Below, piece by piece: positions 30,705 to 49,764 of a stretch of DNA of 64,000 bases (the stretch's first letter is position 1; the number at the start of each line of letters is the position of its first letter). Source of the DNA: Sarea resinae (Eukaryota); contig JAPEUD010000003.1 of assembly GCA_026026165.1 (NCBI GenBank), positions 496,001 through 560,000 on the forward strand, read 5' to 3'. Both the position numbers and the translations under genes were made by a program. The notes below the pieces were generated by a model. That model was not told where the DNA came from. It was given only the letters and a program-made list of their open reading frames with translations, and did not search any database.

Positions 30705-31621
30705 ACGGCGGGAGAAGGCTCGATCTAGCATCAGGGGTTGATTGACGGGAGGGGCGGCGGCGGCGGCGGGCGGGAGATTTGCGTGGGTCAAGATAAAACT
30801 CATCTCTGTCGACGTCGACATCGATGTCGAGGCGGAGGCGGAGGCAGAGGTCCAAGGGACGAGGAGGCCAGGCATATGGTATGGGTTGAGATACCGAGGC
30901 TAGATGAAAGCACGCATATGGGCGATATGGAGGGTGTTTGAAACGGGTGGAAAGAGTGGAGCTGAAGATCGTCTTATCTAACTCTAGATGGAAGACAGCT
31001 TCGTTCGATATCTTTCAATCCACATGAAATCCACATTAGAAGACAACATCCGATCTGACCTTCCTCGCTCTCTATACGGACCCCCGCATCCGTCATCTTC
31101 CCCTCTCCTGCCCCTTCCTGACCTTACCTTACCTCATCATGAAAGCCATCCGTCTTCACACCTCGCGGCACGGAAGCAATCGGTATCCCGCAGCCCGTCA
31201 GGCGCGCAGTAGCTCACTGGCACTGACCATTCCCAAGACAGTCCATTCCCATCGGATCGCAGTGACAGCACGTAGCTCCTCCACCTGCCTGGATGCATGT
31301 ATACGGTGTAAATGGGGCACTGTATACTCGAGGACTTAGCCCCGAAAGTCTGCAGAACGGAACGGAGGAAGAACGGGATAAGAATCCCGTGGAATGGATT
31401 TACTAGCTATGGCTACAGGTATTGATGTGCATCTGTCTTAGAAGAAGACTCGTTTCGGTTTCCGTGCGCGTTATTAAATGATACGGATGTCGAGACCAAA
31501 GCGGCCCCGGACTGGCACTGCTATGGATGTGATATCATATGTGCTGCGTGTAAGTACAAGCCGTGTCAAGCGCCTCCCGTGATGTAGTGGGCCCTCCGTC
31601 CTGGAAGCACGCCGAGAGATG

Positions 31622-31625
<4 letters not shown>

Positions 31626-31660
<35 letters not shown>
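31626..31660. repeat. (GA)n microsatellite
   Basis: Direct observation. Confidence 0.95.
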
Positions 31661-31663
<3 letters not shown>

Positions 31664-31685
31664 CGGCGAGGCGGGCTCAGCCCAC

Positions 31686-33143
31686 CTACTGTTTTATGTA
31701 GAAATGCTCGCCGGTCTCGAGGACCTTGATCGCGTCGCCCACTCTGATCGTACTCTTCTCGGCGCCGGGGACCATCTGCATGCCCAGACATGCCAGGTTC
31801 GGCGCGCCGTCGTCGACGATCCGGAAGGATCGGAGGACCTTGTTGGGCTGGGACGCATGCTTGATGCCCGTCGCTGGGTCGACGTTGGGCAGCATGCAAC
31901 GCGCGGTTCGGCACGCGACGTGGTAGATATATGGGCCGATCAGGATCTTCTTCCATGTTTCTTCTGTGTATGCTGCTGGGCCCGTGACTGCGACGAGGGA
32001 GGAGAGAGAAGTCAGTTGAGGCTATGGTGATTTGGAGAGGAGGGAGGAGGTGTAGAAGGGGGGATTTACTTATTATGTTTGCGCGGAAGCGTTCGATGGT
32101 CAATCGGAGAGGTTCAGATAAGATTCGCTTTTCGACCTCCCGGACGCTGGCGAGGTTGAGGATGTGCAGAGGGTACTTTGCAAACATATCAGTGATCTAA
32201 TTTGGGTACAAAGCATTCGTTAATGGAAGCTTACTGCGTCCGCAAACCCGGTTATGGGTTGATAGCCCAGCTGCTCTTTCCTGGGCGCGCATCGGTACAC
32301 CTCTCGGTGATTGTCGACCTTGAAGAGCGTGAACGGTCGTTTAACGCCGAGGAACGAGCTCAGTTCCGGCGGGAGATGACTGCCCATATTGAGCGCATAC
32401 GGGGCATCTTTCCAGATCGTCATTTTCTCGTTTGTGTAGCCACGCCTCGAGATCATCTCTGGTGTTGGGTCGAAGGGCACTTTGATGGACATTTCTGGCT
32501 CCCCTATCAGAGGGGCCGCGAGTCCGGCCAGCTGCCCTCGCCATCCTGGCTGCTTGTATGGGAACGTCATTATGATTACTCCGCCGCTTTGGACGTCAAG
32601 AGATTTGGTGGAGTAGCCAGGGGAATCTGGGTCCGGCACCCAGATTTGCGTCTTGACTCTTGCAAGCAGAGGCAATTGGCGTTGGGTAACAAATGCCCAG
32701 TGTTCTTCCTGTTCCTCTGGCTTCTGAGAGTCTCCAGTTGTCGTCGGTTTCTTCAATTCCGCGAATGAGAATTGTCGGTCGTATCTCATGCCCGTGCTGA
32801 CGACCTCTCCGCGATTCAACTCAACACCCTTGCAGCTTTTGACTGGATAAATCCACAAGCTTTTGACCCGCCAGCGTTCCGTGCCGTCGGCAATCTGGCC
32901 CTGTTCTACTCCCTCCTCATATTTGCTGTCGTACTCGTCGGAGATGTTGCTCCTGATCCTTAGACCCAGCTTCCTGCAACCCCGCGGTGCAGACTGTTGC
33001 CTGCGCCTGCTAGAAACCTCGACGTAAACCAGGACAAATATGGGTGTAAAGCAGAGGAGAGATGTGTAGAAGAGGAAGTACGGCACGGAGAGCTCGAGCT
33101 TGGGCAGGAATTTCAAGTTCGGAAAGGGTATCGGGAGCGACAT
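31686..33143 (-). CDS. MOSC-domain protein (mARC-like) with N-terminal membrane anchor
   Basis: SLWIYPVKSCKG, YDRQF, GFADAYPLHILNLAS, RFRANII, RCMLPNVDPATG; two introns. Confidence 0.88.
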
Positions 33144-33783
33144 CTTACGGGGCGTGCTTCAAAGGCTCCGAAGTTTCTGGCTCTCTCTCTCTCTGTCAAA
33201 CACGACTTCATGGAGAAAAAAATTTTTCAATACTCACTGAGGGCTTGGAATCGACTCGAGGTTCAATAATGCGACTGCTTTATTCCGAACGACCGCGCCA
33301 CAACCGGCCTAGCGATCCTTCAACAGCAAAGGCTTCGAGATGTCACTCATTCGACGGGTCCCCTCATCGAGAAAGTGGAAGTGGGACCGGTGAAGAAACT
33401 GCCTTTGATGGCGATGAGATGGTGGTGCTTGGTAAAGCCGCCATCTGGGTCCGTAAACAGCTTGCCAGAGTGCCTTCTCTCAAGTGCGGGAATATCTGAC
33501 AGCTCGCGGGAGCCGAATCCGCCAATGGTGAAGTTAAAAAGCTAATCGAAAAGACAATTTTAGTGAACATATGTTGCACGTCGCCGCTTGCAGAGAAGGC
33601 ATTAGCTTATCGAAATATACTGTGTCCTCATGAATGTTATATAAGTTTGGTAAGGTAGTCATGACTTCAAGCATTGCTTGACTACCTAGAAACGTTGTAG
33701 CAGTAAAGTAGTAGAACTGGAGATTAATATGCGAGCCCACGAACGCGGCTTCCAAACGCGCAGCAGCTTTCATCTCAACTCGA

Positions 33784-35184
33784 ATGGACAATCAGAGCAC
33801 AGCAAACACTTCTTCGCCATCCTCCCGTAAGTTTCTAGGATGAGTCTCACACTGCTTTGGCTAATTTTTCAGATCGACTACCCACCGTCTCCGCGTCGCA
33901 GGCGCTTCTCAGCTTAGGATCGTCACAATCTAGACGCGTCTCCACGGGTCTGATTCAGATCGACAGATATCTTCTGCGCAATGTTGTTCAGAGCGAAAAT
34001 CAGCCGAACGGTCAAGGCGGTCTGAATAGAGGCCAGATTACTGAAGTCTATGGGCCTCCGGGAGTGGGCAAAACTACACTGGCGTAAGCTCCGGCAAAAT
34101 TGGGAAATTCTCATTTCACATCCTTTGGCATCAATCTTACAGCTGTCAGATTGCAAGTCAGCGCAAACGCTCTTCGATCGGGAGACCATGTGGTTTGGGT
34201 GGGTCAGTGGATCGATCTACAGCAGATCCGTGTCAAGCCCTTTTAGCTCATATCTTATTATACAGATACCTCGTTTCCCTTGGTAGGGTCGCGTTTAAAA
34301 GATATTGTCTCAGGCCTCAATGATGTGGCAGATACGCCGCTATCTTCAGCGACCGTTGTGCAGGACGTGGAAAATCTCTTGGAAGGATTTCATCATGTTA
34401 TAGCGCCTACCCTACCTCATCTAATAGCATTGTTATGCCACCCGACTCCATCATTTCCGCCCCCGAAGACAGGCCTCATTGTGGTGGATTCGATATCAGC
34501 TTCATTCAGTACCGCATTTCAGAAACCGCAGAGCCAGTCACTCTTGCGTCCTGAAGGCAAACCAAAGCTTACGAAGAAGCAACAAGATGCCAAGCAATTC
34601 GCGGGAAGTCGAAGATATGACACAATGGGCGACTTCGTCTCGAAGCTTGGACGACTCGCTGCGACAAGAAACGTCGCCGTCCTCGTCACTAATCAAACTG
34701 TCACCAGAATGAGAGCAGACGCAAATGCGGCCCTTTTCCCTGCGGTTGCCGGAATTGTCTGGGATGCTGGCATTGCCAGCCGTATATGTCTGTTTCGGGA
34801 CTTCCCTCCTCTGCAGGATGATGGTGCACAATATGCAGAAGAGAATCGGAAGACAAGATGTGCGGCGGTAGTGAAAGCCGGCGGACTCGTTATCAAAAGG
34901 CATGAGAGAATGGCGCATTTCACAATCAACGCAGTAAGTCGTGCAACTTGTCGCTATCTTTCAAGGCTTACATGTCGCAGAACGGTCTACGAGAGACTCT
35001 ATTGCAGCCTGTCCCTGCGGAGGCTGCTGGCACTCCCGAGCCGCGGAAGAGGAAGCACAACGAAGTCGCAGATAGTCAATCAGAAGATGGCGTAGACTCG
35101 GATAAAGAATACGGGTGGATGGTCGACGAGGTTGACGAGAATTTGACGGAACCACAATTCGAGCATGATGACACCTCAAAATAA
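33784..35184 (+). CDS. RAD55: Rad51 paralogue (Rad55/Rhp55-like) DNA repair protein
   Basis: HRLPTVSASQAL, GGLNRGQITEVYGPPGVGKT (Walker A), LIVVDSIS (Walker B), RKRKHNEVADSQSEDG..EYGW; four introns. Confidence 0.82.
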
Positions 35185-38100
35185 CCTGGAAGCCAGCGGA
35201 TAGTTTGATATCGATGATCTCATCGCGATGAACGAGACTTGGGCTGAAACTCTTGAGTACCATGACGGCATCTCGAAAACGGCTAGCCAGGACTGATAGT
35301 ATCAATATCGGGAAAGACCTTGCTCTGCAGTCTACACCAACATAAGACTCAGCACGCATGTTCCATGGCATCGGATCCGTCAGCTTCTCGAGTAGATACG
35401 CTTGGTCGATGTCAACCAAAACGAGAGGCGGTGTAGGAAGTCAGCACGGGCAGACACCAAAGCATATGCCAAGCCATTCGTGTGAAGACAACAACAGATA
35501 TTGACTTTCCACAGGATGAGATGGAAGCAGATAATCAGCAGCCCATCTATATCATATTAATAGCGTTGCGAATTATGCAGTACCTTATTCGTACGTGTTT
35601 CCGAGTCGGGCATACCGGTCCTCTGGATCTTTTACCCCACGTTTTCCCCGCGCTCTCTCGCTTGACCGCAAGCCTACCATCCAATCTATTCGTCCATCCA
35701 TCCATCCATCCATTTCACCTCCTATCAAACAATCTGGAAAAAGGAAGCGCCATATCGCACTAGGAAATTCGGGACGCACCTCCGCAGTCGACGCCACTGT
35801 CGTCGTTGTACTTTATTTGCACTCTAATTCCAACACGCGGGTCTACGAATGAAATATGTGTGGAAATGTTGTCTCAGCCACCCATAACCGGCCCGAACTG
35901 CTAATGTCTCTATCCGTCCGTCAGGTCTCGGGCTGGGCGCGTTGGCAATGTCAGTTGGACTATCGTATCATGGCGGACGTTTGGCATGTGAAATGATGCG
36001 TGAGGATCAGGGGGTTCCAACCCCAGACGCACTTGTTCAGTAGAGGCACAGTATAACTCGTAAGCACCACAGCTACAGAGGACAGCAACTTATAGCAGAA
36101 AACAAGAATCTGAAGTCGGGGTAATGTGGGGGAATAGCAACAAGCTCGTGTCGACCAGCACCCACCCCATTGTCTCATTATTTTTTTTGGTGGTGATAGA
36201 AGGGGGCAGAAGATGATTACCACTGAGCGGTGAACGCTACATCCTCTACAGATTGCGTTTGATGCAAGGACATCGATCGCATTATTTGCGCCCGACCAAG
36301 GCGCCGCACCGCACTGCATGCATTGCATTGCAGTGTGGCGCCATCAGCACAAGATGGATAAGCCGAATGCATATCCAGCTCCTGCCTGCTGAGTACCTAC
36401 GTTGATCTACGGGGACTGTATGGTCGGCCTTGCTGCCTCGACGCACCCTGCCCACCCTGCCCACCCCACCCACCCCACGACCCCTGACGCGAATCACAGC
36501 GGCTAGACGCAGCATCGCCAGCATCGCCAGCATCGCCAGCATCACGGCATTATTGCGCCCCTCGCATCTTCAGCAAGCAGACAAGCAGGCAAGCAAGCAG
36601 GCATCTGCAACACCCACCCGATCCCCTCTCACCCATCCCTACAGCAGGCACGCATGCAACCATCACGCCAACGGATATGTGGGAGGATGTCGATCTCCCC
36701 GGCCCCAACCTTGTCCGTCCGCAGTATCCCCACTGCGTATGATCTGATCTCTGCTCTGGGCCTGTAGGGTATTCCATCTTCCTCAGGCCATGACGGCGAA
36801 ATGCTCGTCTCGTCTTGTCTTACCTAACCCAACCCAACCCCACACCTCGAGGCATCAGGCGCATCAGCGCATCAGCAGAGGCGGAGATCGGTAGGTAGGT
36901 AGGTAAGCATGAGCACATACAGCGCTGCACCTCGTGCATATGTGAATCCGAGGTGTTGTACGTACCTGAAATCTGCAATACTCTAGCAGGAGAATCGTAG
37001 GCAAGGCAAGGTAGAGCAGAGCAACATAGAGCAAGGAAGCGCGCTGAGAATGATGTGATACCTACCTACCAACCTACCTACCATACCTACCTAGAGTGTG
37101 TGGGGTCCCCAGACCGGCACAGGAGGTAGGTAACGATACTAAGGTACAGGTACGTAAGGCAAGCAAGCGTAGCAGCACGACAGCCTCCCTGAGGTACCTA
37201 GACCTACTTCGTACATAGTAGACGGGGGGTATCAAATCGTCACGCACATTACATTGCATACCCGAGGCACCCACCACCAAGAGGCCCAAGGTGGTTTGTT
37301 TACACCGCACATCACACCACCACCTAACCGCCCCTCCGTACCTAGAAGTCAGTCAGTCAGGTCAGCGCACCATTCATTCGCGCCTTACCTATGCCATTTC
37401 CATGCCTTGTATCCCTTATGACCCTAATACCCCTAGGGAATAAATCCCCCGTGGTTTGCCCGTCCCGACGACTATCTGCTCACATGTGTACTAGGATAGT
37501 CAATATCTGTAGATCGGCACGACTCTTGCTTGCGGATGTAGCATACAGGTACGTAGATAGATAGATAGATAGATACAAGTGTTGTTGTTGTGTGTAGAAG
37601 GGTCTCGGGAGGGAAATTCGATTTAGATTTATTATCTGAGTTTATATTTATTTTTTTTTAGGCGGGGGAAAGAGGGGGAAGGGGGCCTGATATCGTTCTC
37701 TCGATCCCACAGTTTCATAGAAAACTCACCTTTTCTCTATCCATACAAAAGTAAATAAATAAAAGAAACAAAAAACAAAGAGACCCCCCCGAGACCCATC
37801 CTAACAGCTCTATCAGGCAGAGCCCACCCCCTCTCTACCATTCATCTCTGTCTCTGTACCGCTGTCCGTAATCTACTACGTACATACTCCGGAGTATATA
37901 TCAAAACATCCAAGAACCAACCCAACTCATCCCCATATATTCCTCCGCCCAATCTTTCGCTATAGCCACGGGGTACGCGTGCGTACGCGTAAGACAGACA
38001 GACAGAAAGACAGACAGATATGTCATGCCATATCAGATCCCAATCGAAAAATTTAAAAACATCAGCCCATACTCGCACGCGTCCTACCCTACCTACCTTA

Positions 38101-39457
38101 GTCTACCCTACCCTCCTCTCCCCTCCCTTCCTCTACCCTTCCCTTCCCCAGCCCAACCCGGGCCCAGCTCAGATTAATGCACCAAACCCTCCCTACTGCC
38201 CTCGTTCCCTCTGTCCTACCCTCTCTTCCCCATGAAAAAGTCCCCGCGCTCGTGCACTCTCACCCACACACTCACACTCACGCACACTACTCACACACAA
38301 ACTAAGCCCCGCTGACAGACAGACAGACAGACTGACAGACTGACCGTCAGGCTGACCAACAGGCTGACCCTCTCTAGGGCCGAGCCAGCCAGGTTGGCAC
38401 GCCATACCTCCACGCGACGCCGCTGTGATATACAGCGCATTGCAGCGCAGGTGCATTGCAGTGCTGTAGCAATTCCCGTGAAAGCTCTCTCCTCAGCTTG
38501 CGGTACGCTTTACCTGACTTCGCCTTACATACGTTCAACAGGCGACGAGCATCGATCGATAGAGGTTTGTATAGGACTATCTTTTTGAGTGCAGGTGGTG
38601 GGTTAGTGGGTAGGTAGAGTAGGGTAGAGTAGAGTAGAGTAGAGAGGGTAAGGGAAGTAGGCCATCTGGGTGTATAGAGAGTGGTGGGACGGGCTGAATA
38701 GGCACACTATATATATGATAGTGTGGGGAAAAGTCAGGGCGGTGCGGTGCGGTGCGGTGCGGTGAGGTGAGGCAACACAACAGCAGCAAGAGAGGGAGAT
38801 AGAGGCAGCGAGTTGGACCTGTCAGTGAGTTAGGCAAGACTCAAGACCCCTCCTCGTCTTCTACCTCTCCCTTTTAGCAAAACAAAGAACGAAAGAGGGC
38901 AAATAAACGCAACAAGAAAAAGACCATTCCCCCGATATCATACACCTGATCATTCTATTCCCCAGCACCACAGCAATCACGCTCTTCCTCTCCCCCCCTC
39001 TTCCTCTTCTCCTTGGCCATTCTACCGTTAGCCTAGAATGAAAATTGAAGTCCAACTCATACGGACTGTTATATCCGCTCATTGCCGCACAGTTGTACTC
39101 GCAGCATCTCCGTAACGTTTGGGGTGGCACGAGCTTGGGTAGGACGTAGAGGGCTTAGGCGTGACATCGTCGGTGAGTTTATTCTGTATCGTGAATGCCG
39201 GGGCCGAAAGAGGAAGGAAAGAAGGTCAGAGACAGGAAAAAGACAGGCGCAAATGAAATCAAGATGGGAAAAATCCAAGATGCCGATACAAACAAGCGGG
39301 GGCCGGGGCGAGACAAGGCGGGGGCAGGGGCCATCCTTATCACACCTTCTCATCCCAGAATCATGTTCTTTATTACCTCTCTTCCCTCTTCTTGAGTTAT
39401 CATGCCCCCCTTCGGCGCCGAGAATCTGCTTTCTCGCCCGATTCCGCATTCCGAATG

Positions 39458-39649
39458 CCCCGCCCCCCAGACCTGTTTCCCTAGTCGTGCGCGCCATGGT
39501 TTCCCCAGCCCCAATTGCCCCCCCGCCAAGTCCCCGCAAAACCCCAGTCAAAAACCCCCGCGTACATATCCAGCCTCAGGCCATCCCTCCTAAAACCCCA
39601 GACGCACATCATCCTCGGTGACCCCCGACCCCCGCCCCCCGCCCCCCGC
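39458..39649 (-). promoter_or_regulatory. Dense array of 11 CreA/Mig1-type SYGGRG sites
   Basis: CCCCGC/CCCCAG at 39458, 39465, 39503, 39521, 39532, 39542, 39556, 39596, 39630, 39637, 39644, all in one orientation, several with A-tract flanks. Confidence 0.55.
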
Positions 39650-40876
39650 GCGCCCACATCTCACCCGCAGGCGGCGGGCGCATCCCTCACGCCATATCAA
39701 ACGCATCGGCGAAAATCGTCCCCCTTCGCTACCGGATAAAGACGGAAAAGACGGATCAAGCCGGAAATGCACCGCAAATTTCACATCTCACATCTGGTTC
39801 CTGGTTTCGGGGGGTGGACTGGCCGACCAACCGACCGCGTGCGCGGACTGCTGCGGGCTGCATGCACAGCTGCACTGCACGACCTAAGTGAGCAAGGTCG
39901 TTCCGGAGCCACTATCCCACAATCGAAAACCTTGTGAGCTGAGGCCACTTGCGCACATACTTTACACGCATACGTGTATCCCGCAAATCTGTTGTGTATC
40001 GGCGGTAGGCAAGAGATCAGATGCAGCCAGTCGTCAAGAGAAAAATCCCGATCTCGAGATCTAGAGTACATAAGACGAATGTACCAATCGATAAATTGCC
40101 GAGCCCTGGGGTCCGGAGTCCCTGCCGGGTTCCAAAGTGGTATGCGGATCCGAGGTGTCGAACACTTCGTGCCTCGAAAGAGCTCTGCTGCGTGTTTCAG
40201 GCTGACCAGGGCAGGGTACAGAAAATACTCTCGGAGAGATTTGCTGAGATACCTGTTTCGCTTGCCTGATCTGTTGCATGAATGAAGGGCGGAGAAGCTG
40301 CGGAGAAAAATTAGTTGCCGGCTTGACTGCTTGCGACGCCGATGCAGATGGACCTGTGAGAGAGCATGGAGAGAGAATCAAAAAAACAGCAAGGAGCATT
40401 GACAGTCTCTGTAATTTGTATTAGGGAGCTAGCGATATGTTCGTGAATTGATGATTGCCTTTTTCCTGCTTGATAACAAGCATAACAAGCTTCGAACGTC
40501 TAGTAAATAGGTAGTATAAAGAGTAGAGAGTAGGAAATCTATAGGTTTCGGTCAAAAACATGTTTAAAGACGTTCTCAATAGAGGTAGGATTTCTCGAGG
40601 ACATTACTAAGGACAAAGGTGTGTAGTTGAAAAGCAATGGAAACCGAAAAGCGAAAATATCCATCGCCATGGTGCGCTGATGTAGAACCCCGCCGCCGTC
40701 TATAGTTCGTTCGTGATGAGTTGAAATCATTAATACCGCTGCTGTATGACAAATGGAAAAAAAGACTCTCAAAAGCAACCTCTACAGATATGAACGCCCG
40801 AGAAACTCCCATAAGACCGGCTTGGGACGGGAAATTGATCAGAGGATCCAAACTCCCGAATGAGGGCCGGCGAATT

Positions 40877-42130
40877 CTAATATCGGTCACTCAGGTCACC
40901 GCCTGCGACCGAACCATTCGCTGAGGAGCTGCCGGACGAGAAACCGCTATTGACGTTGAGCAGGTCCTGCACAGCCACTTTCGGCACCTGCGGCACCGGC
41001 AATTTTCGCTGTGTTCCATCCGATCTCGACATGATCTCGCTGATTCTCAGACCCGACGAGGGCGACTGCTGATTCATCGACGGACTGTAAGTTTGCTGGC
41101 CGTCGGCTTGAGGCTCCATCGGCGCCAGAGCGGGGGTGTGCTGGAGAGAAAGATGGCGGATGCCCGGAAGATGAATCTCGTTCATACCGTAAGGCCTCAG
41201 TCTCGGTGAGTGCGCGGGAGTCGCAAGCGGAGTGTGATCGGGTGTTGGAGAGCAAGAGTCGTGCGAAAAGGTGGGCGAAGATGGAGCTGTGGACATGGGA
41301 GAGTTTGGTCTCGATCGCTTCGAGCGGTGCATCGGCTGATCTTCGTCCTCGTGCGAGTGAGAGCGCGACATTGGATGTGACGAGTAGGCATAAGCTGAAA
41401 GTGAGGGAAGCCGGCTACCCGTATGGTAACCGCCGTGGTGCGTATGCCTATGCGGCATGCTGTACATCGATGGGTGATCTTCCCGCTCCACTTGAGAAGC
41501 CGCAGTCGCGAGCAAGTTGATGTCGAGGGGATTCTGAAGACCGTTCGGACTGCCGCCGTTACTTCGACCGCCAAAGGGTCCCAAGGCCGAGGGCAGGTGG
41601 CTCGAGTATGCCGAGTACGAGTGAGGGGGCGAGACATTTGGTGACCCAACCTTGGAAACAGGCGCTGATCGAGAGATGGTCTTTGGTGGCGGTGGCATCA
41701 TCGAGGAAGAATCTGCGAGACCGCTCACCACGGCGGCTGCAGCGGCAACCTGTTGAGATTTGTTACTTCTTCTCGAGTTTGGGTTGTTGTGTATTCTGGA
41801 GTGCCTCGTCAACTCGTCCGATCGACTGAAGCGCTTGGTGCACCCTGGAAACTGGCACGCGTGAGGTTTTTCTCCAGTATGCGTTCTGATGTGTCGAGTT
41901 TGGTGCTCTAGACGATGGAATGCTTTGTCGCAGAGAGGACACTTGTAGGGTCGAGGCAGATCTTGTCGGTGGTCCTCGCCGCCCGGCTGAGCACCACCAA
42001 CGAGTGGCGGCAGTAGACTGACTGCGGCCGAAGCCATTTGATTTTCTTGAATTTCGCCGAAGGATGATGAGGATGGTTGTTGAGGATTCAGCAGATTAGA
42101 GAAATCTACTGCGGACGTTGCTCGTTGCAT
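40877..42130 (-). CDS. creA: Carbon catabolite repressor CreA/Cre1 (C2H2), intronless
   Basis: [16 protein letters not shown] start, two zinc fingers ([33 protein letters not shown]), poly-Ala, SHED motif, conserved [27 protein letters not shown]-terminal [10 protein letters not shown]. Confidence 0.97.
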
Positions 42131-42286
42131 GTGATGTTTGCACGCCGTTGGCGATGCGTGCGAGTGATGATCTTCGGAAAGGTTTTTGGTTGTATGACGA
42201 GGAAAAGATACCGAAATGGGGGTGTGGGAAAAACTTATAGCGACCGACCCACGCTTCGGAATGATGAGAGCGAGGGAGGGAAGGAT

Positions 42287-42303
42287 GGGGGGGGGGGGGG
42301 GGG
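42287..42303. repeat. G17 homopolymer in the creA upstream region
   Basis: Direct observation. Confidence 0.9.
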
Positions 42304-44335
42304 TGTTCGTAGTGGGACGGAGTACAGAAGAAAACGTGGGGAACGGGATTCGTGTAAGGTAAGGTAAGACAAGGTATGCGTGTGTATGGAAGTAGCCCTG
42401 GAGGTACTTTCGTAGGGTACCTAGCGTAGCGAACTGAGCGAAATGTGGGCGCAACTTGAGTTTAGACGGAGCCTTGTCAGAGCGCGACGAAGATCGGCCG
42501 GAAAGCCACTTGGAGTAGTAATAATCAGTCGTGCTTTCTTGTGCTCGTCCTTTTCCTGGTCCTGGTCCTGGAGGAGGGGGGGGTCGTGATGGCGATGGCG
42601 ATGGTGAAAGAAACTGGGGAAGAAAGAGGGGATCAGGGGTTATTATTCGTCGAGGTGCAACGAGTGTGATGTGAGAAGAAGAATGGTGCCGTGACTTTTC
42701 CTCTGTTTGATCTCTATCCGTGCTTTGACAGATTCTGCGCTCTTCCGGGGCCCAAGTCCCGTTGTGGTATGCGTGGTATGAGATGATGGTATGGTATGTA
42801 CGAGTCACTACTACGGGTACTCGCGAGTAAGGTACGAATACGTTGCGGTCGTCGTGAGCTGGTAGAGTCGAGTAGTGTAATAAGGTTGGCGATATGTCCC
42901 TCGGTCGTATGAAGTAGTACAGCAGCAGTCCGTCAGGTAGTCACTGGCCAGGTACCTCAGAGTCGTAGTCGTCCTCCAAGTGGTGGACGTAGTAGTAGTC
43001 GCAGTCGTGGTGCTATTGCCGATGAGCGATGGGTGTTGACTTGCGGTTAATCGGCGCAAGGGAACTTCGCTCGACCTCGTTCGGCGGTACCTCTCGCCTG
43101 CACCAAACAGACAAGTGTACGGATAGACAGGCACGGTCGGTGTTTCTTGATCGTAAAACCGATCTAGAGGATGAGAGGAAAGGATCAGAGATGAGATGAT
43201 GGGCTGAGACGCGAAAATCAACTGAGCTCAGCCAAGCTGAATCGACCCAAGCGAGAGTACAAGGTCGTCCTAGTACCGTGTGAGCCACCGAGGCCAGCAA
43301 ATCCGAGTACTCGAGGCCAGTAGTGGTGGTAGTAGTGGCCAGGTCGAGCCAGGGCTACTCGACTCCAAGGTCTCCAGTATGGGGCGCGTTTGATCTATAC
43401 AGGGCCCCGACTGCCCCGTCCACGGCACTCGACAAGATGACAGGGCGAAGAAAGCCGTGGAAGATGAATGAATTGTGGCTCGTTGCCGGCCAAGGGACGA
43501 TGAGTAAAGGCTGGGTACGGGGATCTTGGGCTTAGGTTGCTGGATCGAGTCTAGGGGGAAGAACCTTACAGCCCAAGTCGCGCGCGGAGACCACCGGGGT
43601 TCAGGTCTCGGCGGCCGGTACTCCAAGCATGGAATTTCGGAAGGGAGTGGTTAAAAATCTGTTAAAAGTCGCAACAGGAACAGCACTGCGTATGCTGACT
43701 GGACGGGGCTGGGCCGATTGCGGGTCAATCGGGAATAGGATCGAGGCGATGATTTCGGTCTGACTCCTTGCTGACTCGTTTGTTGCTGTTGCTGGACTGT
43801 CACTCACGCATTCAATGGGAAGTACCTTGCGGTCAGGTACGCTTCATCCGTGGCTGACGCCTTGTTATCATTACTGAGGAAGTGAGATGGGAGTGTGCTG
43901 GGCTTCCTTTCTTTCTTTCTTTCTTCCTCTCTGTCTCTATTTGCCAGTGATATGATGGCAGTCTGGTCTGTCGCAAGTACTATGTAAGAGCCCGATATTA
44001 TTGTCGATGGGACGAAGTTGCCGAGGCGGAAAAAGTGGATCGATTACTACGTGAATGAGTTGCCCGGAGTGCCGCCGCGGTCGTGGTCGTGGACTGCGTG
44101 GTAAATGATAGCTTCTGATGCCGATGCGGACGGTAAATCCTCTTGGTGGGGAATCGTTGGAGCGACTGACTGGGGCGATCGAGTGATTTCCGTGGTCTCC
44201 AGGGGGGATGCTGGTCGCTTCCCAGGATCAGATAGGCGCCCGTGGGGTGATAATCGGTTGATTGAGCCACGGATCCGACCGAGAAGACTTTCTTTGTACA
44301 GTACAGGCCAAGTCGGATACGATGTTGATGACGAC

Positions 44336-44384
44336 TGATGAATGATGAATGATGAATGATGATGATGATGATGATGATGATGAT
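44336..44384. repeat. (GAT)n/GAAT microsatellite
   Basis: Direct observation. Confidence 0.9.
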
Positions 44385-47300
44385 TACATATATTGCTCGT
44401 TCCTCCTGCCAAAGAATTGATGGTCACAAGAGATGGATTTCTTATCACTTTCAAAATGGGTTGGACTGGTGGCGCACACTGGTACGCACACTGGTGCGCA
44501 CACTGGTCCGAGTGACAGGAATCTGGCGATAAGCAATGGTAGCGTTGGAAGGTACCTGAGATGAGAATGTGATGATCTCACATGCTTACAGGATTTCACA
44601 CACGGAAAGGGGGGACTTCGGAAGCCTGGGAGGATGAAGAGCGACTTTAACCCTGCTGCTCGTTTCGCCTTCTCCTACTACGGAGTAGTCTTGAGGTCAA
44701 GACTTGAACAAGGCGTACTGCGCAGTAGCTACGTGCAATTTCAGGTGCGAAAGGGTGACACGACAGATGGTCAAGAGGGTGTCCTCTGGGGTTGTCTCTA
44801 AAGAGACATCTGGGGCTTGCTGAGGACGACAAGGTTTCTCCGCCGTCCGAATCAGACGCCTCTACGGGAGGCGGTGGGGGTTGTGCTGGGCTGGTCGCGT
44901 CAGGATGCGCCCAGGAATCGACAGGTTGGCAACGTGCAAGGGGGAGATGAAAATCCGTGGGGGAGTTATGTCGAGATTGGCTGCCATGGTCCCGTGTCAG
45001 CCTTAGGTGGTCAGGTACATCGAATCCAATCCATTCAGCTATTGTCCCTTGTGGGCGACAAGATCAGATCGGACCCTCGGACAGGACAATAAAAATGAAT
45101 GATTGCCACCAACCAACGAAAACAAGGACAGCTGCACAAGGACACCTTACTTTCGCAGCTTCGGTGAATCAGGGGTTCCCTACCGTATATACGAAGCGGT
45201 ACGGAGTAGTGAGGTACATCCGTAGTAAAACTCCGATGAGCATTGATATTGCGGGGGAAGGATGTTCAGGTAGTCAAACGATCTTTCGCTTTCGGGTAAA
45301 GGCCCCGTCATGTGTCACAGAGGACTTTAGGCAAGATCCGTACGAGTAAGAGGTCTGAAATGAAATGATATTGCGGAGAAGCCAATACCAGTGCATGTCT
45401 CAACTGGGCGTATGCCCGGTATGGTCGGTACGGAACGCAAGTACCTTCACAAAGGTGCGTGCCCAAATGCGGAGTCACAAAAGGACCATGGATCACATGT
45501 ATGGTCTCACATTCGATCAGGCATTGTTGTCGTTCTGCTCAATCCCAACAGGGCTCCTACCCCAACATAAAATCGGCTCTCCGGACCGGGCGCGGAGTAG
45601 TCGTAGGGGGGAAGACATGGAGGGGGGGCGTTATTTTCTCTTACATGCGAACAAACGCAGTGGATCTTCTCCTCGAGAGAGAGGATCTGGGCAAACGATA
45701 TGGCGTGATGCGGTCTAAATACGGCGTTCGATACGGTGTCCTGCGTCGTCGTGAGACCACAAACATCAGATGACGGAACTCCACAGAAGCGCTGCAAATG
45801 GCAAGGAAAAGAGGCAAGGCGAGGTACTTTCCCCGTCGCTACGTATTAATTGTCCTGTCCCTGCAGCAGCGTATGAGTGAGTTTTTACTTTTTTGCACAT
45901 CATGGCTGGACTCCAGGGCGACCGAGGTACGAAGTACATGATGGATGCGCCGACCTGTACAAACTCCGGAGTACAATTGGAGCACTGGGCTGGGCTCTCT
46001 TCTCCAGCGTTAGAGTACCCCAAGGTACTTCCCTGACTGCGCAGTACCTTAGAGTCCTTTAGAGTCCCTCTAGAGTCGAGCAATCTGTGCTCCGCAGAGT
46101 ACGGAGTACTTCGTACCTCCATTTGGTACCTTCATTTAGTACATGCATTCCCCAGCAAGCCACTGCTATGGCTGCCGACGGTGGACATGCCCACCTACGC
46201 TGTACGCTGTACGCAGCATCCATGGATGACACAGCCTGGAGGTCGGTCTCGGTAGAGCGGTCGGGACAAGTCGGGAAGCATCTACGGAGGAGGAGAAAGC
46301 TGCACCCCTCGAAATGGCAAAGATGATCTGCCGCGGATATTCGCTAGTCCGGCTTCTGAAAGCGCCTACTTCGAGTACGAATTCTCCGACCGAGTCTGGA
46401 CTGTTTGATGAAGATCGTTCATTACTATTTTCCGGCGAGACTAAAATTTCGCCGAGATTGCGAGACGTCCTTGCGCCGTACTTCCACCATCTCGTCGGAA
46501 TTAAGCATCGATAGCAACAGCAGCGACGACGGCATCAGCAGCACGATAAGGTACCTCGAGGCTCGTGCAAAAGGCCGGCAAAGGAGAGCAAATCACAGGG
46601 AGATTGGCACGAAAGGGACGGTGGCATTGCCATCCGACTTGGAGACGCTTGGAGAGACAATCAGACCGGAACCTTGGAACGTTGTCTCTGTAGGTTTCAT
46701 TTGGTGGAATGGGTGATGAGTGATGATGCATCGACCGATCGATCGATCGATTAATCAAGCACCTCAGTCAATCAATCAATCAATCAATCAATCAATACGT
46801 TCCGTTCCGTACATGGACGAAATGCAACGAATTGAAGTTCAGTCCAACTTGGATTGTCATCGACATCTTAGGTAGAGTTTGGTCGATAAGGACAACAACC
46901 ACCAAATACTCTACTCCGTACTCGATCGAGTACTGTTGTGTTGGATGGTTGGATCCATGGATGTACCGTATCCATGGCTCATTGATGGATCATCTCTTCG
47001 TTCTTCCGAATTTCTATTCTTGCCGGCCATGTTGTTCCGAGCACCCCTGGCCCTTCTGCTGACTAACCTGGCGTGACTGGGCTCAAGCCACCGACTCCCG
47101 TCAGTGACTCAGATTCGCCACCGCAACTTGCGCCAACGGCAGCCCCCAGGGCCCAGGCACGTCAATTTCCAACCCTCTCACCCTCCGCCCTCCGCCCTCC
47201 GCCCTCTCGCCGTCTCTCTGCATCGTCTCATCTCCTGGTCCCCCATCCCACGCGGGCCCTTATCGCCAGCTTGTTCATTCTCGCTCTTCCCCATACATAC

Positions 47301-49764
47301 GTCAGTCAGCGCACACGGGCCCTAACTCTCAAGGGGCATGGCTGGGGAAGAGCGCTAAAGTCCAATATTCTACCCCCCGCGCCCCCCATCCCACGTTCCT
47401 TGACCTGATTCGGCAGGTCATCGACATACTCGTACTTCCCCCATACATTCCTAGCTGACGATCAATCCGGGGCTCCACACCCATGGTTGCACCTGCAAGC
47501 TACTGCGCAGGAGAGGACAGTTGTACCCCAAGTGCGACCCGACATCTTCTTCCGCTCGTCCTATCACTCGGTCCAGCCCACCAATAGAGACAGCCCGGTT
47601 CAACCGAGAATCTGGTTGACCTTCCCTCCGCATCTCGCACTGCTGCAAGGGACCATCTTTCGTCACTCATTCGACACAGGGTTCTCCACATGGAATGTCC
47701 AAGTCTGGAGCAATTCCTCCCCGCTGTCCTTCTTCGGCCATGAGCATTTCCCATTCGTCGTCTCAGGAATCCCATCTATTGACCGACGTCCGTTTTAGAT
47801 CACCGGGCTGACGTCTGCAGGATTCGTTGAGACATGTTGATCGTTGGGTTTTCTGAGCCGTCTCCTTATTGGGCTGTCTACCTGCTCCATACGGAGCCTT
47901 AAGCGAAAAAGCGTGGAGGGCCTTGCATGATTTGCATCATACGTGTCGGCAGCATCAGTTCATGGCCTCATTTTCGGAGCAACTTCCTGTCGAATGGCAG
48001 TTGCTATGCCTGTCTATATTATTTCACTTGTTTATGATCACTGCAGAGCTAAAATTTATGTGGCTTTTCCTGTCTTGCTTTATTCGAAAAGGGGTGATTC
48101 CCCGCTCACATCAGAACTAACTCCTCGCTCGACGAGAACGAGAGAACTTCTTCGCGAGTTCTCTACGTCATGTCTTGAAATTAAAGACTACCACCACCAA
48201 TTAATCGATTAGGCGTATTTGTCTATTTAGACCGATTTGCTTTCACTCCTTTAGGCCCACGCATACCCGTTGAATAGCAAGTCAAACAGAAGCAAAAGGT
48301 AATACTAAGGTCATACAATACTAACCGCCATCGTCTCCTTTCGACCTTCGTTTCTGTCATATCCCTAGCTCAGACGAAGCTTGAAGCTTCATATCCATCC
48401 TGACAATGGCGCATCCATCCATCCGCTCATCCATCCTCAGCATGTCAGCGGACCTCGTCATTATCGGCCACAAATAATAGCACCGCTGGCGTGGCAAGGT
48501 ACGGCACGGAACGGTATGGCATGGCATAGCACGATATGAAATCCTCAATTCTAGAACGGCTCGTCTGTTCCACTCTGGAGGGTTGATCATCTGTGGCTTT
48601 GCCACGCAACTCAATTTAATCCACGACATCGTCTGCTTCTTCTTCTCTCCCCTCTCTCCTTTCCATTATCATATCTCCTATCCTTGGCCCGCACGACTGA
48701 CTCAGCCAGCCAGAGAGTCGTTTAATCCAGTCTAATACAATCCAAGCCGGTACCATCACCATCACCATCACCATCACTATCGCCATCGCCATTCTCCTCC
48801 CCCCTCCCCCCCCTCCCCTTCCCCTTTTTCCTTTCCAATTTCTGTAAGGTCCAGTAAATAGGCAAACCTGTTCCTACGTGCGCCAAAAAAAAAAAAGACT
48901 ACTATACCGCGACTCATCCGGGCGATGCCAATTTGCCTAGTAAATAGCAGCGCACCTCACGAATTCCCGTTTCCAGTAAGTAACCACAAGCCACGCAACC
49001 GAATAGAATGGCAACGAAACAGACCGGAATGCAGCGTCATGGGTATCTAGATTATTACTACCCAAATCCGACCCAATGATATCATCTTATTTCATGTTCT
49101 ATTCTATTATCTCATCTTCTATTCTATTCTATGATATGATAATATTGCATCCTCTGATCCCCATTTTCTTTGATCTCTCACTCTCCTCTCCCCCCACTCT
49201 GCCGGCGGAGGCCGTGTTTGATTGGCCGGATAGTGGTAAGCAGAGCTGAGCTGAGTTAGTTGAGTTGATTTGAGTAGAGTTGAGTGGAGTTGAGTGCATG
49301 AAATCGAGTAGGCCATGCTGACCATCCCTGAAACATGCTCCGAGGGAGAGAACCAAAAGAAGAAGGGCTTGGAGCGGAAAGGATATCGGGGTTTGGGAAC
49401 CGAGAAAACAGGGACAAAAGGGGAGGGGAGGGGAAAGGGGGAAAGATAGAAGAAGTGTGTTTATGTGATTATAGTCTTGGTTTGCAGCATCTGCCTTTTA
49501 GTATTGGGGTTGGGGACAGAAAAAGTTTGTTTATCTATCTATCTAACCAGCTCGTCAGGTAGCCAGCTAGCCCGGACAAAGATCACGTATATCAGCCTCT
49601 TCTACTGCCCTCCTCGATTGATTGAATTATTTTTTCTGCTACTCTACTCTACTCTACCGCACGCATGCATTGTCTCTATTTCAGGTCCGGCAGGGGAAGA
49701 AGCACTGGTGAGCTGGCTGACCAACTAATTAATCAGCCATCTACCTCCCCACCTTTCTTAGGCA

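Follow-up and report, generated by a model that had tools for sequence, protein, structure and literature searches.

The question raised by this locus of Sarea resinae is why so many copies of the motif read by CreA stand close together behind creA, the gene that encodes the repressor itself. We analyzed a window of 64,000 nucleotides, the whole stretch of DNA to which all positions below refer. CreA/Mig1 proteins bind SYGGRG, and the motif was fixed in advance by the neighbouring creA gene, which we counted in favour of reading the boxes as CreA sites. An earlier note on this DNA had reported 11 SYGGGG boxes in the same orientation 1.2-1.4 kb past the creA stop, and our motif count recovered every one of them. 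The cluster (39458..39649, minus strand) contains 7 GCGGGG and 4 CTGGGG boxes, at 39458, 39465, 39503, 39521, 39532, 39542, 39556, 39596, 39630, 39637 and 39644, with start-to-start spacings of 7, 38, 18, 11, 10, 14, 40, 34, 7 and 7, and all 11 match both SYGGRG and SYGGGG. All lie on the minus strand, which is the sense strand of creA, and the array is found 3' of the gene at 1228-1419 bp from its stop. Membership in a CreA cluster is argued here from motif and statistics and is unproven, and we refer to the boxes as candidate sites.

The array is made of several parts. Its non-repetitive core (39503..39561, minus strand) holds five boxes in 59 bp, where T-tracts join two boxes in a partial fit to the Mig1 AT box. 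A 7-bp tandem repeat of four copies (39622..39649, minus strand) is the source of three boxes; when it is removed 8 boxes in 164 bp remain, and when it is collapsed there are 9 distinct box contexts. No minisatellite runs across the array, as the tandem part covers 28 of its 192 bp, and no helical phasing of the boxes was found (0.36 at 10.5 bp). Four more SYGGGG boxes of opposite orientation, absent from the earlier note, are located on the plus strand at 39198..39323 (39198, 39296, 39303 and 39318) and face the main cluster across 135-260 bp, an arrangement that recalls the divergent pairs of CreA sites in the prn cluster. A hairpin between these boxes and those of the minus strand was considered and rejected, given that the folding was no better than that of shuffles (z=0.68). 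The Rfam covariance models gave no match within 34000-44000 at E<=1, and two chance-level hits further right. A Mig1 site consists of a GC box and a 5' AT box; all 11 boxes fit the SYGGGG part, and the A-tracts that had been noticed beside the boxes are real, but only 2 of the 11 have 4 of 5 A/T in the AT-box positions and none has 5 of 5. The longer CRE-1 motif TSYGGGG (PMC7084071) is matched by 3 of the 11.

C-richness alone does not account for the density of the SY boxes. The array is the top 200-bp stretch of the window, and the runner-up has 6 SYGGRG or 4 SYGGGG boxes, in agreement with the earlier remark that no comparably dense array is present elsewhere in the window. Local shuffles that keep 2-, 3- or 4-mers gave means of 4.3-6.3 boxes, with P<=0.0008 for the exact interval and P of 0.003-0.010 for a wider interval (39400-39700) untrimmed to the boxes, values to be read with the knowledge that the array was picked after the fact from a large scan; 5-mer shuffles are uninformative because they fix the box count. 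We used as background 800 kb of the same genome, sampled as 80 evenly placed 10-kb stretches, in which the maximum was 5 SYGGGG boxes. A 5' SY flank is carried by 11 of the 13 G-runs of the array; the share is 0.325 among 4131 runs of the background (p=1.7e-4) and 0.315 among 232 runs in a G-run-dense context (p 1-2e-4). Inside the array, comparison of SY on the 5' side with YS on the 3' side gave discordant runs at 7:1 (p=0.07). The chance expectation per genome, extrapolated under the assumption of independent flanks, comes to about 0.001 arrays of 11 boxes and 0.04 of 9 boxes, figures that flatter the finding because local duplication is ignored. By the shuffles and the flank counts, then, C-rich low complexity, against which the density was to be checked, is not a sufficient cause.

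The array was also compared with the rest of the genome, which comprises 25.5 Mb. The ranking set was built from same-strand SYGGGG triples with gaps of <=18 nt (314 matches genome-wide), and the 80 rival loci compared were those found with at least two triples together with hand-picked G-rich loci with a single triple, other single-triple loci being left out; simulation indicates that two or more triples are expected in 99% of 10- or 11-box arrays and in 75% of 8-box arrays. Only one of the 80 rivals is denser than the array, a 12-bp minisatellite with 17 boxes, so that the genome-wide density ranking proposed earlier, done here with same-strand SYGGGG rather than SYGGRG, puts the array second among these loci. 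The rivals with at least 8 boxes are four tandem or telomere-adjacent repeats (17, 10, 8 and 8 boxes, the 10 and one 8 belonging to a telomere-adjacent 23-bp repeat and the other 8 to a 9-bp repeat) and one coding stretch in an Ala/Pro/Ser-rich frame (8 boxes), the next-best non-tandem cluster among them. The array is thus the densest non-coding, non-repeat cluster of same-strand SYGGGG boxes among the 80 rival loci. The rank claim is limited to that class of DNA and to that motif because the full SYGGRG counted on both strands, which we rejected as a yardstick, gives coding stretches scores of 12 and 13.

Two of the repeats met in this survey are of separate interest. The densest SYGGGG stretch found in the genome (L093, G000:C35:23931-24323) is the 12-bp minisatellite, with one CTGGGG per unit, and three related copies of it are placed a few kb apart (also C35:21447 and 26095). 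The 23-bp GC-rich repeat immediately borders the TTAGGG telomere on its inner side at three chromosome ends (L135 at the right end of G000:C134, L117 at the right end of C85 and L096 at the left end of C41), has opposite polarity to the telomere, and combines in each unit one telomere-like hexamer and one SYGGGG box; the idea that it is a strange telomere was rejected since ordinary TTAGGG follows.

The neighboring gene encodes the cognate repressor. creA (40877..42130, minus strand) is a single-frame ORF for a 417-aa C2H2 repressor with the canonical recognition helices RLEHQTR and RSDELTR, which are invariant among 22 aligned proteins; its best relatives share 71-72% identity, and of 47 other CreA proteins none is a well-supported sister to it. 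The frame is open for 270 codons ahead of the first ATG, and in the database model the protein begins 31 codons past that ATG (386 aa). By the same count the region upstream of creA is unremarkable (SY flanks in 7 of 19 and 13 of 39 G-runs), and about 7.6 kb upstream of the gene (42131-49700) is also without a long ORF.

On the other side, the array lies in a simple-repeat-rich spacer of 5.8 kb (35096..40876) in which we found no recognisable protein gene: five spacer ORFs had no Pfam match, six-frame peptides of at least 25 aa detected no protein gene when compared by tblastn with 52 orthologue loci, and one homologue search and an exact look-up of 8 ORFs gave no protein. The small transcript that the earlier note had placed to the left of the array was not confirmed by these searches. 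No RNA data set was listed for 35500-43500 either, a result that carries no information on expression. Beyond the spacer is a convergent Rad51-family gene, probably RAD55 (33839..35095, plus strand, approximate boundaries), recognized by a Pfam Rad51 match, tblastn pieces and the neighbor of the N. crassa orthologue, where NCU08806 beside cre-1 is RAD55 (PMC4226480). Because its 3' end faces the spacer, the array is outside the promoter of that gene.

Two further observations concern this neighborhood. The RAD55-like gene and a MOSC-domain gene (31477-33158) remain linked to creA and swap sides: both are downstream of creA here, only the RAD55-like gene is downstream in L055 and L058, and both are upstream in three Cladonia-like loci (among L003, L004, L025, L055 and L058). 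Nested inverted repeats at 37590-37805 are predicted to form a 216-nt minus-strand hairpin (z=-3.06, reached by 0 of 200 shuffles, in a segment picked after the repeats were seen) that is single copy in the genome, has no Rfam match and may represent a structured segment of an RNA transcribed from the spacer.

We consider the best explanation of the array, with a probability of about 0.5, to be a lineage-specific homotypic cluster of CreA sites that acts either on non-coding transcription beside creA or on the gene itself. In the presence of glucose the GCGGGG and CTGGGG boxes would be bound by several CreA molecules, which would recruit a corepressor of the Tup1-Ssn6 type, whose recruitment is established for the CreA family. 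As there is no protein-coding promoter near the array, the direct target is most likely the non-coding transcription of the spacer, or creA through local chromatin or a 3'-5' contact. The outcome would be a second arm of negative feedback on creA beside autoregulation at the promoter, and while the dense form of the array is probably lineage-specific, sparser downstream boxes may be older. We infer from the sequence the occupancy of the array by CreA, its target and any effect on creA. The downstream element read by CreA that the earlier note had proposed is accordingly kept as the best reading, favoured by a density beyond composition and weakened by the distant orthologues described below, none of which has a dense array. 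Of the forms that this reading can take, an antisense RNA running into creA is the weakest, because the antisense signal tabulated for two orthologues is near nil and the array is about 1.2 kb from the stop: in the supplement of PMC4046813 (A. nidulans) every second read column of the creA rows is zero, as is the whole of a second table, values that we take for antisense counts from the text of that paper, and for N. crassa cre-1 PMC5738166 shows one 51-nt antisense bin at about 1% of sense.

If functional, the array would be a variant of the known autoregulation of CreA, in which the promoter arm is known and the 3' module would be new. CreA occupies its own promoter in ChIP-seq of A. nidulans (PMC8844935; also PMC8545104), its negative autoregulation is seen by western blot (PMC10714999), and Scr1 of S. 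pombe, for which a Tup1-Ssn6-type corepressor is described, likewise binds its own promoter and represses itself (PMC6440086). These systems share with S. resinae the repressor family, the motif and sites that adjoin the repressor's own gene; they differ in that here the densest cluster is 3' of creA and fronts no coding promoter. Several sites per locus are also a feature of the CreA targets alcA/alcR, prn and pmaA, and up to 8-9 summits per target promoter are given in PMC8844935, but those sites are spread over the promoters of coding genes, whereas the S. resinae array has 11 boxes in 192 bp in one orientation.

In the literature searched, which was mostly outside subscription journals and the classic autoregulation papers, we found no description of CreA sites 3' of creA. 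The supplements of PMC3951366 hold no row for cre-1. The N. crassa CRE-1 DAP-seq table, of which 24 of 330 NCU08807 places were considered, has no row for NCU08806, 08808 or 08809; with peaks listed by ATG distance and this coverage, it is unable to test for a 3' peak. Among the 1478 lincRNAs of the N. crassa genome (PMC5738166), five (nos. 903-907) surround cre-1, two of them within about 1-4 kb on each side, so that non-coding transcription flanks the orthologue on both sides and the RAD55 neighbour is the same; the lincRNA rows of that paper tie none to CRE-1 binding and give no strand for cre-1, and we regard these lincRNAs as context, not proof.

The DNA downstream of creA orthologues was drawn from a metagenome scan that confirmed 341 creA loci, of which we took the best 80; a stop codon was present in 72, and these formed 52 groups, of which 25 had at least 2 kb of downstream sequence. 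A dense array 3' of the gene is not found in them: within 3 kb, no 200-bp stretch of the 25 loci has more than 4 same-strand boxes, and the maximum further out is 6. All 25 are distant, the nearest being 0.37-0.4 changes per CreA column away, and only simple repeats of the spacer align with them; the result refutes an array common to the whole class and does not address close kin. In the region 0.4-2.5 kb downstream, pooled SY flanks exceed reversed YS flanks (0.424 vs 0.294; 19 loci up, 4 down and 4 tied of 27), as they do in the promoter regions (0.448 vs 0.301). When each locus is compared with its own distal DNA, this excess vanishes (ratio of ratios 1.05, 95% 0.87-1.31, 17 loci), a comparison in which the promoter control also fails; unpaired, the value is 1.22 (0.99-1.53).

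Single boxes were followed in alignable non-coding blocks 0.4-3 kb downstream in 8 locus pairs, where SYGGRG was ranked against 120 letter permutations. SYGGRG ranked 17 of 120 by rate in the first, unfiltered run; with coding-like blocks dropped, a filter that was tightened after the first run had been seen, 11 boxes were kept in 4 of the 8 pairs (22 of 38 two-way counts vs 14.6 expected), and the motif ranked 5 of 120 by z (z 1.8) and 2 by count, compared with rank 1 for the promoter control and 54 for the distal control. The rank falls to 13 of 120 without the best pair, L048/L051. Three of the four pairs show in-consensus changes or a perfect triple box, and the kept boxes are 0.5-2.1 kb past the stop in four pairs of related fungi. 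The search for the array behind other creA genes thus gave a mixed answer, with the dense form absent from all 25 loci and single boxes weakly kept in four pairs, and we take this as no more than suggestive of constraint behind creA in other lineages.

Some of these blocks deserve description in their own right. In L048/L051 a triple of SYGGRG boxes spaced by 8 bp is perfectly kept about 2.05 kb past the creA stop (near 13300 in L051), in non-coding DNA that is 68% identical, with two further kept boxes 150-310 bp upstream of the triple, and the next Pfam gene in L051 is 8 kb from it. A 790-bp non-coding block of 68% identity is found in L003/L018 1.15-1.9 kb past the stop, with many short invariant islands, among them an A-tract followed by GTGGGG, and no Pfam gene for 8 kb; it may be a conserved lncRNA or a module of regulation. 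A long gene-poor spacer follows creA in L003, L031, L051, L055, L058 and L068 (with 5-8 kb to the nearest recognisable gene in L051, L003 and L068), and a gene is placed within 1-2.6 kb in L004, L009, L020, L021 and L041, all by crude gene finding. In Penicillium-like loci a tandem gene stands 1-2 kb past creA.

The most probable of the alternatives, though unlikely in our judgement, is that the array is neutral low-complexity DNA, produced by slippage of G-runs and short duplications of GC/CT-G4 units, and that its proximity to creA is a coincidence of the scan. The spacer is full of simple repeats, three of the boxes come from a single 7-mer repeat, G-runs are generally enriched 0.4-2.5 kb behind creA orthologues (8.2 vs 5.0 per kb), the relatives have no dense array, and SYGGGG triples show no excess genome-wide (377 vs 375 for the reversed control). 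This origin is opposed by the shuffles, which rarely reach 11 boxes even when 4-mers are preserved, and by the nine distinct contexts left after the repeat is collapsed, more than in any of the 80 rival loci (best 8, in the coding stretch).

Quite unlikely, in turn, is a real cluster that is read mainly by, or shared with, another GC-box zinc-finger protein of the AmdX/Adr1/'Mig3' type, which would make it an input to creA instead of autoregulation. The genome encodes a two-finger protein (1202-aa frame, helices RLEHLKR and RRDLLLR) whose first helix is near-identical to that of CreA, and also an Msn2-like protein. Support from other fungi comes from Talaromyces, where Mig3 binds GCGGGG tighter than Mig1 (bioRxiv 10.64898/2026.05.08.723686), and from A. 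niger ATAC footprints, where most instances of the CreA motif persist in a creA deletion (2648 vs 2865; PMC8419926). This explanation needs the proximity to creA without the simple logic of self-regulation, and it is compatible with CreA binding rather than exclusive of it.

It is improbable that the selected feature is a G-quadruplex or a nucleosome-excluding, G/C-skewed element behind creA (a pause or termination site, or an R-loop) in which the SY bases are incidental. The earlier note had suggested that the G-rich strand could form G-quadruplexes, and two canonical patterns (four G3+ runs, loops of 1-7 nt) are indeed present on the minus strand within 39509..39655 (about 39509-39545 and 39629-39655), folding being a predicted potential. 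The array has 13 G-runs in 200 bp vs a best of 11 in the 800-kb background, its 200-nt G4Hunter score of 1.45 nearly matches the highest background value of 1.49, and since the G-rich strand is the sense strand of creA a read-through RNA would carry the G-runs. Such patterns are common, however, with 141 in the 800 kb, the shuffle comparison that gave z=0.68 shows no unusual Watson-Crick fold (the tool does not model G-quadruplexes), and a quadruplex does not constrain the two bases that precede a run, so the SY flanks are not predicted by it. Least probable is a small protein gene whose proline codons would account for the C-runs: a 122-aa proline-rich ORF (39253..39621, plus strand) spans eight boxes, and the next-best non-tandem cluster sits in a coding frame, but the ORF is probably not a gene, having no Pfam match, no homologue among 16 candidates and no exact counterpart in the protein collection, and three boxes are past its stop.

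Returning to the CreA-site cluster, a wider form of this reading can be proposed, which we hold as doubtful: that in filamentous ascomycetes generally, CreA sites 0.5-2 kb behind the creA stop form a second, downstream autoregulatory module. In such a module a gene-free spacer that has been kept would hold a non-coding promoter, often bidirectional, under repression from the downstream sites, lincRNA or antisense transcription would be coupled to glucose repression and would shape the CreA pulse, and the S. resinae array would be an extreme, expanded copy. It could have escaped notice where ChIP peaks are assigned by ATG distance and C-terminal tags alter the 3' flank; PMC8844935 assigns targets by ATG distance and uses such tags.

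The array is real and unusual within its own genome, and should the CreA reading fail it would be an ordinary cluster of G-runs. Filamentous fungi have in CreA their master repressor in glucose, and for enzyme production it is one of the main targets of engineering. Its self-regulation has been viewed as a matter of the promoter, and in genomes as compact as these there is little documentation of elements that act from behind genes. A 3' module of feedback, were it to work, would extend a well-studied circuit by one layer and would bear on the interpretation of tagged and deletion alleles of creA.
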